Shown: positions 3,627 through 45,754 of the stretch, one piece after another | Layout of the letters: every line of letters begins with the position of its first letter | How positions within the stretch are numbered: position 1 is the first letter of the stretch | Assembly: GCA_944391475.1 (NCBI GenBank) | Contig: CALXTR010000003.1 | Coordinates: 50,823 to 114,822 of the forward strand | DNA length: 64,000 nt | Direction of reading: 5' to 3' | Source: an uncultured Alphaproteobacteria bacterium | GTDB lineage: Bacteria; Pseudomonadota; Alphaproteobacteria; RF32; CAG-239 | Program-made: the position numbers and the translations under genes | The notes under the pieces: model-generated | Told to the model about the DNA's origin: nothing | Database searches by the model: none | Seen by the model: only the letters and a program-made list of their open reading frames with translations

Positions 3627-3684
3627 AACTCAACATAAAAAAAGAGGCCGACAAGCGACCTCATTTTTTATGGCGTACCCGGAG
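3627..3684. repeat. Partial direct copy of the tRNA-Arg 3' end plus its terminator (attR-like scar)
   Basis: ctcaacataaaaaaagaggccgacaagcgacctcattttttatggcgtacccggaggg is 57 of 58 identical to 3873-3930. Confidence 0.8.
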
Positions 3685-3872
3685 GGCTTGAGGATAAAAA
3701 CAACCGTTACTCCGGTTGTTTTTACCGCAAAAGGCGCAGTTTTCTTAACAAGCAAGGAATGCGTAAGCTTTCCGAAGCGAGATTAGGAAACAAGTGACCG
3801 CAGCGAGTTAGCGAACTTGTGAGCTTAGGAGCCAGAACGAACCCACGAGTGGGTTCAAATCCGCCGGGACTC

Positions 3873-3930
3873 AACATAAAAAAAGAGGTCGACAAGCGAC
3901 CTCATTTTTTATGGCGTACCCGGAGGGATT
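3873..3930. repeat. Direct repeat copy 2. It overlaps the genuine tRNA-Arg 3' end and its terminator.
   Basis: Same 58-mer as 3627-3684. Its 16 nt of tRNA 3' end continue into the full tRNA at 3912-3988. Confidence 0.8.
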
Positions 3931-3988
3931 CGAACCCACGACCCTTGGCGTCGGAGGCCAATACTCTATCCAACTGAGCTACGGGTAC
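3912..3988 (-). tRNA. tRNA-Arg (anticodon CCG)
   Basis: Reverse complement reads GTACCCGTAGCTCAGTTGGATAGAGTATTGGCCTCCGACGCCAAGGGTCGTGGGTTCGAATCCCTCCGGGTACGCCA. It has a 7-bp acceptor stem, a GTTCGAATC T-loop and the anticodon loop CUCCGAC. A hairpin plus T-run terminator follows. Confidence 0.85.
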
Positions 3989-23028: not shown

Positions 23029-23063
23029 TCAGCAATGCATAAATAAGATATGTAGATTTTAAA

Positions 23064-23357
23064 TTCTCCGTAAAATTGCTCTAGACGACCATTATACGAG
23101 CTTTAAGTAAAAGGTCGGATAGTGAGGAGAATAATAAGAAACCAGAAAAAATACGACTGAGTGTATAAAGACATACACGATTGGAGTATTTTTTCTGGCT
23201 TCTGTATTAGTCACCCGCTAGACGAGCTTAAAGTAAAAGTTCGGAGTTTTAGGTTAGTAGAGTAGTTTTTAGGGCGAGAAAAGCTTGAGCGTATATAGAA
23301 ATACGTGAGCTTTTCGAGACCCGCTAAAACTGCTCTAATAACCCAAAATACGAACTT
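23064..23357. repeat. Block of modular about 125 bp palindromic repeat units (standalone copy), directly abutting the lptG-like stop codon
   Basis: Shares ttctccgtaaaattgctctagacgaccattatacga, ctagacgagcttta, tattagtcacccgctagacgagc and the gagYgtatawagaaatacRYg hairpins with 30478-30748 and 44730-45016. Confidence 0.8.
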
Positions 23358-29517: not shown

Positions 29518-29546
29518 CTTGGTGCGGAGTTTTTTTGTGCCCGAAA
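29518..29546 (+). terminator. Rho-independent terminator after the SDR gene
   Basis: aaaactccgcttggtgcggagttttttt. Confidence 0.75.
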
Positions 29547-29576
29547 AATCCGCTTGCAAATTTTACGAGATAGGAT

Positions 29577-30050
29577 AAGCTAAAACTGCACTCGGGAGAG
29601 CCGAGTGCGGAGTGTAGTAACTCCTTGGTCAGAAAAGAACAACTCCTTTAATGGGGAGCTGGGGAAATAAGGCTATGCACGAATAACCCAGACTGTTTCT
29701 GTGTACAGTTTGGCCCCTAAATCCCCCTTAAAAATATATTTTAGTTTAGCTAGAAAAAGATAGATGCGAGCAAAATGGTGTAGCGGATAGTTCTTCATAT
29801 CCGCAAAGCATTTTACGAAGCAGATGCTTTTTATAGCTAAATCCGCAGGACAAGCCTCCAATCATCATCCTACTTGCCATTTTTCTTGGTGTTAGCAATA
29901 AGTAGCACCTGCGAAAAATGCCTGCGTATTATAATGATTGGGCGGCTTGCTAAAATATGTCTTTAAGGGAGATTTAGGGGCATCCTCCCCACCTTGATTT
30001 GTTGTCAAGGTGGTTTCTTTTTAACCGGAAACCTAAAGGGAGTTTAGAAC
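29577..30050 (+). promoter_or_regulatory. Structured leader of XRE module copy 1: conserved 5' hairpins and a terminator-like hairpin plus T-run immediately upstream of the RBS. It carries a nested MITE-like insert.
   Basis: Conserved gcactcgggagagccgagtgcggagt hairpin, ctcctttaatggggagc, and ccaccttgatttgttgtcaaggtgg followed by tttcttttt, 20 nt before the RBS. Homologous to 44170-44368. Confidence 0.45.
29714..29980. mobile_element. MITE-like 267-bp insertion with 19-bp terminal inverted repeats inside the leader; absent from the paralogous module
   Basis: Terminal inverted repeats cccctaaatcccccttaaa at 29714 and tttaagggagatttagggg at 29962 (18 of 19). Internal hairpins. No ORF. Confidence 0.45.
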
Positions 30051-30299
30051 ATGGGTCATCATCGTAACCGTATTAAATCTTGGCGAGAATGCCGCCAAGA
30101 AATTGGCGAAAAAATTAAGGAAATGCGATTAGAGTTGGATTTACCACCCGAAACCGCCGCCGAAATTTTGCGTATCGGCACCAATCATTTGCTTTGTTTA
30201 GAAAATGGCGATATCCGCAAAATGGAAATTTCTTATCTCCATTCTATAGCTTATAAATATCACTATAAGTTAAAAATCAGTTTTGAGAAAAAAACATAA
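30051..30299 (+). CDS. XRE-family helix-turn-helix protein (82 aa), paralog 1
   Basis: HTH LDLPPETAAEILRIGTNHLLCLENG. RBS AAAGGGAG. Roughly 70% identical to the 44369-44614 product. Confidence 0.7.
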   Translation: MGHHRNRIKSWRECRQEIGEKIKEMRLELDLPPETAAEILRIGTNHLLCLENGDIRKMEISYLHSIAYKYHYKLKISFEKKT

Positions 30300-30477
30300 C
30301 GTAAGCAAAAAGAGTTATTCCTCAATTGCTTTAGCAATATTTAAAGTCATCCCTCGTTTTTCGGAGAAAAACGTCCAGGGATCTTCGAATTTGTAAATAA
30401 AAAAACAACCTTCCGATTATTAAAAACTAACTCGAAGACCCCTTAACGACTACTAACGTAGTCGAGGGGTGACATTA
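30300..30477 (+). repeat. Conserved hairpin pair downstream of the XRE gene (copy 1)
   Basis: tcatccctcgtttttcggagaaaaacgtccagggatcttc and ccccttaacgactactaacgtagtcgaggggtgac are nearly identical to 44615-44729. Confidence 0.6.
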
Positions 30478-30748
30478 TCTAGACGAGCTTTAAGTAAAAG
30501 GTCGGATAGTGAGGGGAATAATAAGATTTCAGAGTGGCGGCGACTGAGTGTATAAAGAAATACACGGGTTCGAGCCGCCAGCTCGCAAAATCTGTATTAG
30601 TCACCCGCTAGACGAGCTTTAAAGTTCGGAGAATGAGTCGTATAGAGTAATTTCTAGGAGCGAAACAAACCCTAGCGTAGATAGACCTACGTGGGTTTGT
30701 TGAGTTCTCCGTAAAATTGCTCTATACGACCATTATACGAACTTTAAG
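30478..30748. repeat. Block of about 125 bp palindromic repeat units (module 1 tail), abutting the ftsH stop codon
   Basis: Units begin with ctagacgagcttta and contain the hairpins gtgtataaagaaatacac and cgtagatagacctacg. Ends with ccattatacgaactttaag. Confidence 0.8.
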
Positions 30749-32614
30749 TTAGAGTTCGGGGACAGAAGAATGCGTCCTCCTCTCTTCAGCTACCGGAACA
30801 TCTTCGCTGCGCTCCAACTTCTCGCCTTTGACCACTTGCTTGATTTCATCACCGGTCAGGGTTTCATATTCAATCAAGGCTTCGGCCAAAAGTTCCCATT
30901 CTTTGCGTTTGTCTTGCAAAATTTGCTTGGCTTCATTATAACCCGACATCACCAAGGACTTGATTTCGGCATCAACCAAACGGGCCGTATCTTCACTCAT
31001 ATTTTTGTTTTGAGTAACCGACTTGCCTAAAAATACTTCGCCCGAATTTTCGGCATACAACACCGGACCAAGCAAATCGCTCATTCCCCATTCGGTCACC
31101 ATAGAGCGCGCCAAGTTGGTTGCCGCCGCAATATCCGAAGAAGCCCCGCTGGTCACATCATCTGCCCCAAACTTGATTTCTTCTGCCACGCGTCCACCCA
31201 TCATAATTGCCAAGCGCGATTTCATTTTCTGCTTAGAATAAGAATATTGGTCTTTTTCGGGCAGTTGTTGCACCATACCCAAAGCCCGTCCCCGCGGGAT
31301 AATCGTTGCTTTGTGAATGGGGTCGGTTTCTTTAACATATAGCGAGCAAATCGCATGTCCGGCCTCGTGATAAGCGGTGAGTTGCTTTTCTTTCTCGTCC
31401 ATCGCCATTGACTTGCGCTCTGAGCCCATCATCACTTTATCTTTAGCTTCATCAAAGTCCTTAGAAGTAACTTTGTGCTTGTTTTTGCGCGCTGCTAATA
31501 AGGCGGCCTCGTTCACCAAGTTGGCCAAATCTGCCCCCGAAAACCCCGGAGTACCCCGAGCAATTACCGACAAATTAACATCTTTGGCTAGCGGCACTTT
31601 TTTGACATGAACTTTCAAGATTTCTTCTCGACCTTTTTTGTCCGGATTAGAAACCACCACCTGACGGTCAAAACGCCCCGGACGCAACAAAGCCGGATCC
31701 AAAACATCGGGACGGTTGGTTGCCGCAATCAAAATCACATTTTCATTGTCTTCAAAACCATCCATCTCCACCAACAATTGGTTTAAGGTCTGTTCGCGTT
31801 CATCATTACCACCGCCGAGTCCGGCTCCACGATGACGTCCCACCGCATCAATTTCATCAATAAACAACAGGCAAGGAGCATTTTTCTTGGCTTGAGCAAA
31901 CATATCCCGCACTCGCGAGGCACCCACACCCACAAACATCTCCACAAAATCTGAACCCGAAATTGAAAAGAACGGTACATTAGCCTCACCGGCTACTGCT
32001 TTGGCAATTAGGGTTTTACCGGTTCCCGGAGGTCCGACCAGCAACACGCCTTTAGGGATTTTGCCGCCCAAACGCTGAAATTTTGATGGTTCTTTCAAAA
32101 AGTCGATTACCTCTTCAAGCTCTTGTTTGGCCTCATCGGCTCCGGCCACATCTGCAAAAGTAACTTTTTTAGTATTTTCAATCAACCGCGCGCGTGATTT
32201 TCCAAAACTCATGGCTTTGTTGTTGCCTGAGCTTGCCTGACGCATAAAGAAAATCCACACCCCGATTAGCAAAATCATCGGGAACCAAGAAATCAGCACT
32301 CCCCAAAACGTATTAGCCGAAGTGTCTTCCGGACGAGCCTCCACTTTTGCTCCGCTGGAACGCAAGGTTTCAATCATGGTCGGGTCATATGGGGCATAAG
32401 TACTAAACTTGGTACCATCGGTTGCCGTACCCATAATATTTGCCCCCTCAATCATCACCTCGCTGATTTGCTTATTTTCGGCTTTACTCATAAAGTCCGA
32501 AAAAGCAATTGTCTGATAACCACGACTTTGCGGATTATTGCTAAACATATTCATAATTGCAGAAAGCAGCACGATTGCCACCAGCCAAATAATGATACTT
32601 TTTCCTGATTTCAT
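30749..32614 (-). CDS. ftsH: ATP-dependent zinc metalloprotease FtsH
   Basis: Two N-terminal TM segments, AAA+ Walker [12 protein letters not shown], and the HEAGHA zinc motif. Confidence 0.95.
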
Positions 32615-44136: not shown

Positions 44137-44169
44137 TTGCAATTTTGCAAAAATACTTTAAGTTAGTAG

Positions 44170-44368
44170 ATGCACTCGGGAGAGCCGGGTGCGGAGTATC
44201 GAAACTCCTCGTATGAAAAAAATAGCTCCTTGAATGGGGAGCGACCGGAATAAGTGTGCCTTGCGCATAACGAAGAAGGTCGACTGACATACGCAGTTTC
44301 GAACTCCCCGCCTTAGGAAAGCTAGGGCGGTTTCTTTTTAACCGGAAACCTAAAGGGAGTTTAGAACC
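44170..44368 (+). promoter_or_regulatory. Structured leader of XRE module copy 2 (no MITE insert), with a terminator/attenuator hairpin directly upstream of the RBS
   Basis: Hairpin gcactcgggagagccgggtgcggagt, ctccttgaatggggagc, and gccttaggaaagctagggc followed by ggtttcttttt, then the identical RBS region aaccggaaacctaaagggagtttagaac. Confidence 0.45.
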
Positions 44369-44614
44369 ATGAGTCACAATTACCGCCGTCAAGCTTGGCA
44401 AGCCTGTCAGCAAGAGATTGGCGAACAAATTAAGAATATGCGCTTAGAGTTGGATTTACCTCCACAAATTGCCGCAGAACTTTTACATATCGGATTAAAC
44501 CAGCTTTTGTACCTTGAAAACGGCTATATTGGGAAAATGCAAATTACCGTTCTCCATGCACTGGCTTATAAATATCACTATAAGTTAAAGATAAGCTTTG
44601 AGAAAAAGAATTAG
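44369..44614 (+). CDS. XRE-family helix-turn-helix protein (81 aa), paralog 2
   Basis: LDLPPQIAAELLHIGLNQLLYLENG, with the C-terminus AYKYHYKLKISFEKK identical to paralog 1. Confidence 0.7.
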   Translation: MSHNYRRQAWQACQQEIGEQIKNMRLELDLPPQIAAELLHIGLNQLLYLENGYIGKMQITVLHALAYKYHYKLKISFEKKN

Positions 44615-44729
44615 AAAAAACAAAAGAGTCATCCCTCGTTTTTCAGAGAAAAACGTCCAGGGATCTTCCGATTAAAGAAACTAACTCGAAGACCCCTTGA
44701 CGACTACTAACGTAGTCGAGGGGTGACAT

Positions 44730-45016
44730 TACTTATGTATTAGTCACCCACTAGACGAGCTTTCATCTCCGGCACGGCTTAAAGTTCGGAGAATGAGTCG
44801 TATAGAGTGATTTCTTTGGCGATGACAATCCTAGCGTATATAGAAATACGTGGATTGGCTAAACAAGTTTCAACCTCTGGCACGGCTTAAAGTTCGGAGA
44901 ATGAGTCGTATAGAGTAATTTCTAGGAGCGAAACAAACCCTAGCGTAGATAGACCTACGTGGGTTTGTTGAGTTCTCCGTAAAATTGCTCTAGACGACCA
45001 TTATACGAACTTTAAA
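44730..45016. repeat. Block of about 125 bp palindromic repeat units (module 2 tail), abutting the fabG stop codon
   Basis: tattagtcacccactagacgagc, two copies of ggcacggcttaaagttcggagaatgagtcgtatagag, and the hairpins cgtatatagaaatacg and cgtagatagacctacg. Ends with ccattatacgaactttaaa. Confidence 0.8.
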
Positions 45017-45754
45017 TTAAATCATGGCCATACCACCATTAATATTAATAGTCTGTCCGGTGATATATTGAGCTTCATCAGATGCCAAGAAAGCAACCAC
45101 ATTGGCAATGTCTTGAGCTTCACCCAGCTTGCCTTCCGGAATTTTGGCCAACAAAGCAGCTTTCACATCTTCAGGCAAAACATCGGTCATCGGAGTACGA
45201 ATGAAACCAGGAGCAATCGAGTTAACCGTAATTCCGCGAGAACCAACTTCTTGAGCCAAACATTTGTTCATGGCAATCATACCGGCTTTTGAAGCAGAAT
45301 AGTTAGCTTGTCCGGCATTTCCGGTAACACCAACCACCGAAGCAATACCGATAATACGACCATAGTGACGTTTCATCATACCGCGAACGGCAGCTTTAGC
45401 CAATTTGAAACCAGCCGAAAGGTTAACATCGAGAACCAACTGCCAGTCTTCATCGCTCATACGAATAAACAAGTTATCGCGGGTCAAACCGGCATTGTTA
45501 ACCAAGATATCAATGCGGCCGAGTTTGTCTTCCACATTTTTAACCAAGTTTTTAACATCATCAGGGTTGGTCAAGTTAGCTACAAAGATTTCGACATTAT
45601 CACCGAGCTCAGCTTTGAGTTTTTCCATCGGCTCAGCGCGCATATCAGTCAAAGCCAAAATTGCACCTTGAGCATGCAAGGTACGAGCAATTTTATCACC
45701 CAAACCGCCGGCTGCACCGGTAATCAAAGCTACTTTTCCATCAAGTCTAAACAT
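45017..45754 (-). CDS. fabG: 3-oxoacyl-ACP reductase
   Basis: TGAAGGLG, NAG, and YSASKAG; 245 aa. Confidence 0.93.
   Translation of the reverse strand: MFRLDGKVALITGAAGGLGDKIARTLHAQGAILALTDMRAEPMEKLKAELGDNVEIFVANLTNPDDVKNLVKNVEDKLGRIDILVNNAGLTRDNLFIRMSDEDWQLVLDVNLSAGFKLAKAAVRGMMKRHYGRIIGIASVVGVTGNAGQANYSASKAGMIAMNKCLAQEVGSRGITVNSIAPGFIRTPMTDVLPEDVKAALLAKIPEGKLGEAQDIANVVAFLASDEAQYITGQTININGGMAMI

Follow-up and report, generated by a model that had tools for sequence, protein, structure and literature searches.

The 64,000-nt stretch of DNA analysed here (the window; contig CALXTR010000003.1, positions 50,823 to 114,822, from an uncultured alphaproteobacterium of the CAG-239 group) contains two copies of a unit in which a structured RNA leader precedes the gene for a small XRE-type helix-turn-helix (HTH) protein. 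Comparison of the related loci makes the leader a well-supported structured RNA of ~165 nt, with 20 covarying base pairs, that occurs in uncultured human-gut Alphaproteobacteria. We would give an even chance to the reading that it acts in cis, as an attenuator and translational switch on a family of XRE-type proteins sharing one input, with an independent small RNA as the main rival. The "1.2 kb module" of an original prediction made from the sequence is a composite, the core of which is a sigma70-like promoter, the ~165-nt leader, an intrinsic terminator, a Shine-Dalgarno (SD) sequence and an XRE-fold gene of 81-82 aa.

A repeat search of the window confirms both copies where they had been predicted, in direct orientation and 14.3 kb apart, and confirms that the arrangement recurs: copy 1 runs from its -35 box at 29554 to 30751 and copy 2 occupies 44137-45019. 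Their open reading frames (ORFs), both on the plus strand, encode XRE-type HTH proteins of type A, of 82 aa in copy 1 (30051..30299) and 81 aa in copy 2 (44369..44614; the P0046 row of the protein alignment). The gap in length between the copies is in part due to 269 bp inserted into the copy 1 leader, the rest being the number of downstream repeat units; this insertion upsets a plain MAFFT alignment of whole copies, and the window copies and related loci were aligned by motif anchoring. Greater conservation of the non-coding flanks than of the coding sequence had been predicted, and this holds: the coding DNA is 74% identical over 244 nt and the proteins share 54 of 79 residues (68%), whereas identity is 90% over 39 nt in the 5' leader block, 98% over 42 nt from the terminator tail to the SD, 94% over 47 nt and 98% over 54 nt in the first and second downstream hairpins and 98% over 133 nt in the terminal palindrome. 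Synonymous divergence (dS) between the two ORFs is 1.20, with a ratio of nonsynonymous to synonymous divergence (dN/dS) of 0.15; across 12 type A paralogues the mean dS is 1.04, with synonymous sites near saturation, and dN/dS is 0.13, which indicates purifying selection on the ORFs. As dS is this high and the blocks are nevertheless 90-98% identical, conservation of the flanks is far above that expected from neutral decay after duplication.

The motif-anchored comparison places the constant unit from ~50 nt upstream of the putative transcription start through to the stop codon. In alignments of the upstream regions, conservation among paralogues starts at a promoter-like element with boxes TTGCAA or TTGCAT, a 16-nt spacer and TAAGCT, TAATCT or TAAGTT. 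In copy 1 this element (29554..29581, plus strand) has its -35 box TTGCAA at 29554-29559 and its -10 box TAAGCT at 29576-29581, separated by 16 nt, with a likely start at ~29588 and an A-rich stretch just upstream; in copy 2 (44137..44164, plus strand) TTGCAA at 44137-42 and TAAGTT at 44159-64, with the same spacing, would give a start at ~44172. The first base of the leader is the G of GCACUCGG, 6-7 nt past the -10 box. The promoter, which a consensus promoter scan did not flag in copy 1, is a putative one assigned on conservation and spacing.

In its canonical form, as found in copy 2 (44172..44339, plus strand), the leader begins with P1 (44172-44192), a hairpin capped by a GNRA loop (GAGA or GUGA), which is followed by a long-range rod, P2, formed by leader nucleotides ~22-45 with ~117-136. 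The rod consists of P2a (5 bp; 44193-97/44303-07), a 1-nt bulge, P2b (8 bp; 44199-206/44295-302), an internal loop UCC/C and P2c (6-10 bp; 44210-15/44288-93), and it closes a three-way junction bearing P3 (44225-42), with an NNAU loop, and P4 (44243-81), with conserved internal loops AUAAG and CGAA-AA and a variable tip. The terminator (44308-30) and its U-run (44331-39) come immediately after. The conserved unpaired nucleotides of the leader are UCC, AUAAG, CGAA-AA and ACUG. The leader RNA of copy 2 (44172-44339) has a minimum free energy (MFE) of -74.1 kcal/mol (z = -6.06) and scores 169 bits with the covariance model, against 103 bits for copy 1 (hit 29588-29751). In copy 1 the 5' part of the leader (29588..29712, plus strand) comprises P1 with a GAGA loop (29588-29608), a local P2 hairpin (29609-29624), P3 (29642-29659), P4 (29659-29691) and what remains of the rod 3' strand (29692-29712); the two arms of the rod are mismatched here, and the MFE fold has the local P2 hairpin in place of the rod. 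A "P5" hairpin included in the initial structure was dropped, MFE folds placing those bases in the 3' arm of the variable helix P2c. A leader peptide starting at the AUG in the P3 loop was also rejected: it has no SD, the AUG is absent in L039 and the variants give differing short peptides.

That the leader is a functional RNA structure, as had been suggested, is strongly supported by covariation. In a MAFFT alignment of 24 leaders, 99% of the cells assigned to pairs do pair and 12 pairs change on both sides, and sliding the partner columns by 1-3 positions lowers pairing to 32-49%. RNAalifold applied to the terminated RNA finds the long-range P2 unaided, with 17 compensated pairs. When 30 distinct leaders are placed on the covariance model, 98.0% of cells pair and changes on both sides are seen in 20 of the 49 pairs, including all 8 of the P2c pairs counted (9 are specified); the covariation score is 0.365 against 0.155 for shuffled alignments, with none of 500 reaching the observed value, and slid controls pair in no more than 48% of cells. 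Covariation occurs in P1 (one-sided), P2b, P2c, P4 and the terminator (4 pairs in the stem), with P3 invariant. The P2b triplet exists as four matched haplotypes (UCG/CGA, AGC/GCU, CAC/GUG and AGU/ACU) that are freely combined with many matched P2c helices, and cognate rod arms pair at a mean of -24.4 kcal/mol against -14.7 for non-cognate arms, a gain of 9.7 kcal/mol. Furthermore G-U pairs are abundant, with U-G in 17 of 30 and 14 of 30 sequences in P1 and in all 30 in P3, which places the constraint on the RNA of the ORF strand and not on palindromes in the DNA. The divergent leader L051/L052 differs in sequence and has kept P1, the rod, P3, P4, the terminator and the post-terminator hairpin. 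Mismatched rod arms are found in 6 of the 27 distinct leaders that could be parsed, and by eye in L048; their arms match those of other copies, and one mismatched leader recurs in four independent assemblies (L073-76). Some of the mismatched leaders may be assembly chimeras.

Directly ahead of the ribosome-binding site (RBS) the original prediction had noted a hairpin followed by TTTCTTTTT, and a terminator scan finds it in both copies, at 29989-30013 and 44308-44330, a G+C-rich stem-loop with a direct U-run in each case, as expected of an intrinsic terminator. In copy 1 it lies within an expression platform (29982..30050, plus strand) that is 98% identical to that of copy 2 and comprises CATCCTCCCC, the terminator, the U-run (30014-22) and the SD AAGGGAG (30036-42). 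The U-run ends 13 nt ahead of the SD, which is followed by 8-9 nt and the AUG. A small post-terminator hairpin pairs GGTTTC with GAAACC, at 30012-17 and 30028-33 in copy 1 (plus strand) and at 44329-34 and 44345-50 in copy 2, where the region 44329..44368 (plus strand) has its SD at 44353-59. The earlier reading had taken this hairpin to imply read-through or attenuation control. A classical antiterminator was looked for by inspection, with RNAalifold and in MFE folds and not found: no structure competing with the terminator stem and no covarying partner for its arms turned up, the closest overlap being a GGGGAG:CUCCCC pairing that covers at most the two lowest terminator pairs.

A pairing that excludes the rod was found further downstream. 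In copy 2 the 3' strand of the rod, GTTTCGAACTCCC, has a complement in GGGAGTTTAGAAC; in the full-length RNA the rod 3' strand GUUnnnAACUCCC is complementary to GGGAGUUUAGAAC, which covers the SD and the conserved nucleotides between it and the AUG; the predicted SD pairing sets the segment GUUUCGAACUCCC against GGGAGUUUAGAAC. Constrained folding of full-length RNAs gives the two states nearly equal energies where the rods match, rod minus SD-sequestered being 0.9 +/- 1.8 kcal/mol over 19 such leaders. Among 5 leaders with mismatched rods the state with the SD sequestered is favoured by a mean of 8.6 kcal/mol. In computation, at least, the leader has what a translational switch calls for, a fold pairing the SD with an energy comparable to that of the open fold.

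We propose that the unit may be a cassette giving standardised expression to the members of a family of small XRE-type DNA-binding proteins that is peculiar to this lineage. The sigma70-like promoter would drive the ~165-nt structured 5' leader, and with an intrinsic terminator directly behind it most transcripts would probably end as a stable RNA of ~165 nt. In those RNAs that read through, the rod 3' strand GUUnnnAACUCCC could part from its partner strand and pair instead with the ribosome-binding region GGGAGUUUAGAAC, whereupon the rod 5' strand would collapse into a small local hairpin (GGAGU...ACUCC); the rod state would then expose the SD and the alternative state hide it, a bistable translational switch behind a terminator that already limits read-through. 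A shared input, be it a metabolite, an ion or a common cellular factor acting at the conserved junction and internal loops, would tip the balance, and all the paralogous regulators would be switched together. Because the same conserved nucleotides precede proteins with differing recognition helices, and identical proteins stand behind differing leaders, the input is probably such a small molecule, ion or general factor and not the encoded protein itself. On this model copy 2 would be a canonical switch, and the prediction for copy 1, with mismatched rod arms and an insertion in the rod, is a switch fixed in the SD-hidden state or shifted towards it.

Several points weigh against this proposal. 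The two-state balance is computed from nearest-neighbour energies, which carry an error of about the size of the differences themselves, the specificity of the SD pairing is limited because CUCC and GGAG motifs recur in the leader, and the rod strand of the divergent L051 pairs equally well with the SD of the window copies. Since no antiterminator was found the terminator looks constitutive, which would suit a free-standing small RNA equally well. About one fifth to one quarter of the distinct leaders are mismatched, so the rod is not universally maintained unless such copies are disabled. The alignment of 30 leaders (A8) was fitted to the covariance model, and its covariation counts are not independent events because the sequences are related and recombining. 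The transcription start, the efficiency of termination and the read-through are putative.

The unit is found well beyond the window. In a scan of species-representative genomes ten loci were identified, nine of them in one uncultured alphaproteobacterial metagenome-assembled genome (MAG), CALXUQ01, which has two loci 14.35 kb apart on one contig that are syntenic with the window. The 19-nt RBS block was also used to scan metagenomes and matched 40 stretches, ~20 of which carry the leader and a small ORF, the rest being unrelated; all of the ~20 are ENA gut-metagenome contigs, several of them labelled human gut. A scan of viral contigs with the same block gave no match. Counting copies in related genomes, as had been suggested, gives at least nine cores in one MAG and dozens more in gut metagenomes. 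At protein level a word-indexed search returned 53 clusters at 65-93% identity and a profile of the four protein types matched 287 clusters; an exhaustive profile search of 1.84 billion representatives returned three full-length clusters at 50% identity together with fragments, and beyond these only generic proteins with multiple HTH repeats. The leader lies directly upstream, on the same strand, of every HTH ORF examined, and nhmmer found no leader lacking an HTH ORF in 56 and then 79 sources; the covariance model gave a single weak extra match (L038 9312-9518, minus strand, 19.6 bits, E 0.0023). Four homologous types of protein are found behind the same leader; identity to copy 1 is about 33% for type B, 49% for type C and 18-21% for type D. 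Large contigs from a single sample carry types C and D. At five type C loci the protein is identical and the leaders differ, and the type D protein P0078 is found in two chromosomal contexts, in one behind a canonical leader and in the other behind the divergent L051.

The proteins themselves are XRE domains at the level of the fold, as had been predicted. The best Pfam match of copy 1 is HTH_25, at 19.3 bits and below the cut-off of 24.6, with copy 2 weaker, and some relatives carry precomputed matches to PF13413, PF13560 or PF12844. An AlphaFold model (mean per-residue confidence score, pLDDT, 73.5) has four helices, and its top Foldseek matches in the PDB are HipB, C.BclI, ClgR, SinR and ImmR, with probability 1.0 and template-modelling (TM) scores of 0.5-0.77 at E values of only ~1e-2; the model is a helical bundle with a helix-turn-helix that superimposes on solved XRE domains. 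In the conserved 3' end of both HTH ORFs there is a promoter-like sequence on the minus strand, TTCTCA-16-TATAGT, at 30262-30289 and 44577-44604, which overlaps an inverted repeat CTTATA...TATAAG. Conservation at third codon positions is slightly raised there (0.84 against 0.68-0.81), and the site is a possible antisense promoter or operator.

The copies clearly exchange sequence between loci. At the locus between the short-chain dehydrogenase (SDR) gene and ftsH, the flanks of the window and of L006 in the related MAG are 96-97% identical, the leaders 79% and the ORFs 82%. The ORF of window copy 1 is closer to the grpE-fabG copy of the MAG (88%) and that of copy 2 to its SDR-ftsH copy (89%). 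In L003 and L002 the grpE flanks are 99.8% identical and the leaders only 86%. Across these two comparisons, near-identical flanks surround leaders and ORFs of 79-95% identity, a pattern pointing to recent replacement of the cassette by another paralogue. The proteins are visibly mosaic in alignment, and from this, the near-identical flanks and the swapped contents we conclude that the copies recombine with or convert one another. In L074 (ERZ28659314 scaffold_640, 421-2937) the order is SDR, unit, FabG and FabD, the upstream flank of copy 1 being joined to the downstream flank of copy 2, which is either a real deletion or rearrangement between units or an assembly chimera across the repeat. 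The whole unit has no terminal repeats, no target duplication and no transposase or integrase gene nearby, the marks by which a transposable element would be known.

An independent small-RNA gene with a promoter and terminator of its own, acting in trans (for example through CUCC-rich anti-SD stretches) or by sequestering protein, with the HTH gene expressed by leaky read-through only and the RNA, not the protein, as main product, is possible, if rather doubtful. It would account for the canonical terminator directly after the structured domain in both copies, with a stem conserved and covarying in other leaders, for the missing antiterminator, for the great stability of the terminated RNA (-74 kcal/mol, z -6), for the high copy number and conserved promoter and for an RNA conserved above its protein. 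It sits poorly with the searches, in which no RNA lacking the ORF was found by nhmmer in either set of sources and the covariance model gave one weak extra match, and with ORFs held under purifying selection at a dN/dS of 0.13. Moreover the stretch from terminator to ATG is near-invariant and complementary to a rod strand, which is expected for control in cis and unnecessary for a small RNA. Autoregulation, in which the HTH protein would bind the inverted repeats of its own leader as DNA operators and/or RNA hairpins, as has been reported for Aca2, is quite improbable. The inverted repeat of P1 lies exactly at the putative transcription start, and the fold is that of small autoregulators such as HipB and the controller proteins of restriction-modification systems; against this, identical proteins stand behind differing P1, P2b and P2c at the five type C loci, P0078 stands behind both a canonical and a divergent leader, types A-D have differing recognition helices and common conserved leader nucleotides, and P1 is usually an imperfect DNA palindrome owing to its G-U pairs.

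It would seem improbable that the unit is a mobile or selfish cassette spreading between intergenic sites, its conserved flanks serving as recombination or mobilisation sequences. The many copies in unrelated contexts, the mosaic proteins, the content swapped between the two window loci relative to the MAG and the recombinant leaders whose halves match other copies are what such a cassette would produce, and yet homologous recombination between paralogues explains the exchanges, some of which may be assembly chimeras (as in L074). The ends of the unit lack inverted or direct repeats and show none of the other marks of transposition described above, a unit stands at the SDR-ftsH site in the window and the MAG as well as in distant genomes with a type B protein, and covariation with G-U pairs shows selection at RNA level. 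The mobilisable cassette of the original prediction thus has no direct support, its positions being stable, even though the copies do exchange sequence. An orphan HipB-like antitoxin, or a restriction-modification controller protein left behind after loss of its partner genes, is very unlikely. The best structural matches are indeed HipB antitoxins and the controller proteins C.BclI and C.AhdI, but they are weak (E ~1e-2) and generic for XRE domains, and no toxin, kinase, methyltransferase or nuclease lies beside any copy with annotated neighbours, which are housekeeping genes and mostly convergent. Finally, two ordinary regulator genes from a segmental duplication, with flanks alike through recent ancestry and neutral decay, would fit the direct orientation and 14.3-kb spacing of the copies. 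This reading is refuted by the contrast between an ORF dS of 1.20 and flanking blocks that are 90-98% identical, by the at least nine copies in one MAG and dozens of metagenome loci, which also exclude a similarity confined to a single pair, and by compensatory changes in all five varying helices, with P3 invariant.

The insertion in copy 1 (29713..29981, plus strand) is a highly structured segment of 269 bp with 32-nt terminal inverted repeats that are 91% complementary, and it interrupts the 3' strand of P2. Two paralogues in the related MAG, L009 and L008, have the full-length segment at the same place in the leader (99% identity), one in each orientation, and L004 has an inverted fragment of it at the contig end; the positional orthologue L006 lacks it. 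A miniature inverted-repeat transposable element (MITE) is marked by terminal inverted repeats and by occurring in multiple copies, and this segment, which has both features, has been seen only in leaders. An invertible promoter switch was considered and rejected, the opposite orientation being seen at paralogous loci only: five other contigs with the exact copy 1 protein share the orientation of the window, so that both orientations at one locus, as in an inverton, were not found, and there is no recombinase gene near the segment. We read it as a MITE-like insertion spread among leaders by recombination and not as a proven invertible switch; a former invertible segment is the alternative.

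The idea that the whole ~1.2 kb forms one module is not borne out, the downstream hairpins being absent from several copies and the palindromes occurring also without the gene. Copy 1 is followed by two hairpins resembling repetitive extragenic palindromic (REP) sequences (30345..30477, plus strand; 30345-30391 and 30424-30477), which follow some paralogues only, and then by two MITE-like palindromic units (30478..30751, on neither strand in particular; about 30478-30618 and 30619-30751) that are dispersed intergenic repeats. Behind copy 2 lie corresponding REP-like hairpins (44627..44731, plus strand; 44627-44673 and 44678-44731) and MITE-like units (44737..45019, again unstranded; about 44779-44870, which is partial, and 44887-45019). 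The palindromes of ~133 nt (30619-30751 and 44887-45019) have long terminal inverted repeats. Related palindromic units are clustered at 23059-23340, between two convergent ORFs, and as no HTH gene is nearby the MITE-like repeats are independent of the regulator unit. In L005 the second downstream hairpin is present in three tandem copies. In L053 (3000-3760) the promoter of a type D unit is separated from GAPDH by ~1 kb of non-coding DNA, rich in G+C and in repeats, within which an element like the first hairpin lies in reverse orientation. Rfam scans at E <= 10 matched the palindromes only to miRNA-hairpin families, i.e. as generic long hairpins. An integron attC or gene-cassette origin for the palindromes was rejected on inspection, the units being dispersed among housekeeping genes and each ORF having its own promoter. 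The hairpins downstream, like the palindromes of ~133 nt, are REP/MITE-like repeats of intergenic DNA and do not belong to the regulator unit. In form, as short hairpins or units of 130-270 nt with terminal inverted repeats, these blocks and the 269-bp insertion are like REP and bacterial interspersed mosaic elements (BIME), the Rickettsia palindromic element and Correia elements, and like REP and MITE sequences the repeats of the window accumulate, in either orientation, in intergenic DNA between convergent genes. The likeness to these named families is one of form, and the 269-bp unit is seen inside leaders only, always at the same position.

Both copies occupy intergenic gaps between housekeeping genes: copy 1 is flanked by genes for a short-chain dehydrogenase (plus strand) and FtsH (minus strand) and copy 2 by genes for GrpE (plus) and a FabG-type reductase (minus). 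The 14 kb between them is core chromosome, with genes for thioredoxin, two AddAB-like helicase-nuclease subunits (UvrD-helicase and PD-(D/E)XK domains), a Ham1-family protein, RNase PH and a glycosyltransferase. Like window copy 1, the type B protein P0072 is found in the position YicC-SDR-[unit]-FtsH, and since the position is occupied even where the protein is only ~30% identical, it is old and stable. No co-directional partner toxin or target gene was found at the annotated copies, in agreement with the original prediction; the neighbours identified elsewhere are housekeeping genes too, and the gene is monocistronic, which is not the arrangement of a type II toxin-antitoxin system. Elsewhere in the window a 62-nt direct repeat (3628-3689 and 3869-3930, 97% identical), the second copy of which overlaps the 3' end of a tRNA-Arg(CCG) gene (3912-3988, minus strand), resembles the att-type duplication that an integrating element leaves behind. 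A 300-nt repeat (49766-50065 and 50231-50530, 94% identical, 465 nt apart) lies inside an ORF of 1013 aa (49599-52640, minus strand), and implies internal repeats in that protein.

In relation to known systems, the leader resembles those of riboswitches and attenuators in having a covarying structured domain with conserved junction and loop nucleotides, directly upstream of an ORF and in cis, with a terminator and U-run, and in its two predicted near-isoenergetic and mutually exclusive folds, one of which hides the SD. It differs from riboswitches in having no Rfam 15 match, no known ligand and a terminator without a competing antiterminator, and in that the gene it would control encodes a transcription factor present in at least nine paralogous copies per genome, each with its own leader. 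A scan of the window with Rfam 15 at gathering thresholds found tRNA only, and scans of both copies at E <= 10 gave only chance and miRNA-hairpin matches, with no alphaproteobacterial small-RNA family among them. The CcsR or 'cuckoo' RNAs are multicopy alphaproteobacterial small RNAs with CCUCCUCCC anti-SD motifs in hairpin loops, which lie downstream of a small protein gene and are co-transcribed with it. The present RNA is like them in its several copies per alphaproteobacterial genome, its C/U-rich anti-SD-like stretches (ACUCCCC, CCUCCUCC) and its link to a small ORF, and unlike them in lying upstream of the ORF with its CUCC stretches mostly base-paired. HTH regulators of the Aca2 type, associated with anti-CRISPR genes, bind DNA at the promoter and also an RNA hairpin in the mRNA that encodes them; the likeness here is a small HTH protein, a structured 5' region and inverted repeats near the transcription start and RBS, and the difference is that the conserved leader nucleotides do not track protein type, that the viral contig scan was empty and that there is no anti-CRISPR or phage context. 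With HipB antitoxins and restriction-modification controller proteins the window proteins share a size of ~80 aa and the XRE bundle (TM 0.6-0.77 to 4pu7 and 2b5a), and they differ in being without partner toxin or restriction-modification genes and in a similarity below Pfam thresholds. A survey of structured RNAs in the human microbiome lists many unnamed candidates adjoining HTH-XRE genes (PMC8040213), and the conserved leader strings are absent from the first 200 of its 408 supplementary files.

By kind the RNA is a cis-regulatory leader or riboswitch candidate, or a small RNA derived from the 5' untranslated region, and the family appears to be new. The arrangement is unusual in that a near-unchanged leader stands before at least nine paralogous regulator genes per genome, whose proteins have diverged to ~20% identity. 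Recombination between the copies is a practical warning for the assembly of metagenomes at such loci. A small RNA, if that is what it is, would belong to a family of high copy number that is unusual in its obligate association with a regulator gene. Tentatively, it may be a new orphan riboswitch-like sensor in which one input gates ten or more paralogous, recombining XRE regulators in a genome of ~1.9 Mb, with the terminated leaders possibly acting in trans as well, although we think this rather doubtful. If a ligand is sensed, this would be a class of riboswitch whose output is a family of transcription factors and not a metabolic operon, and such a single-input sensor would constitute a master switch at RNA level that fans out to many transcription factors.

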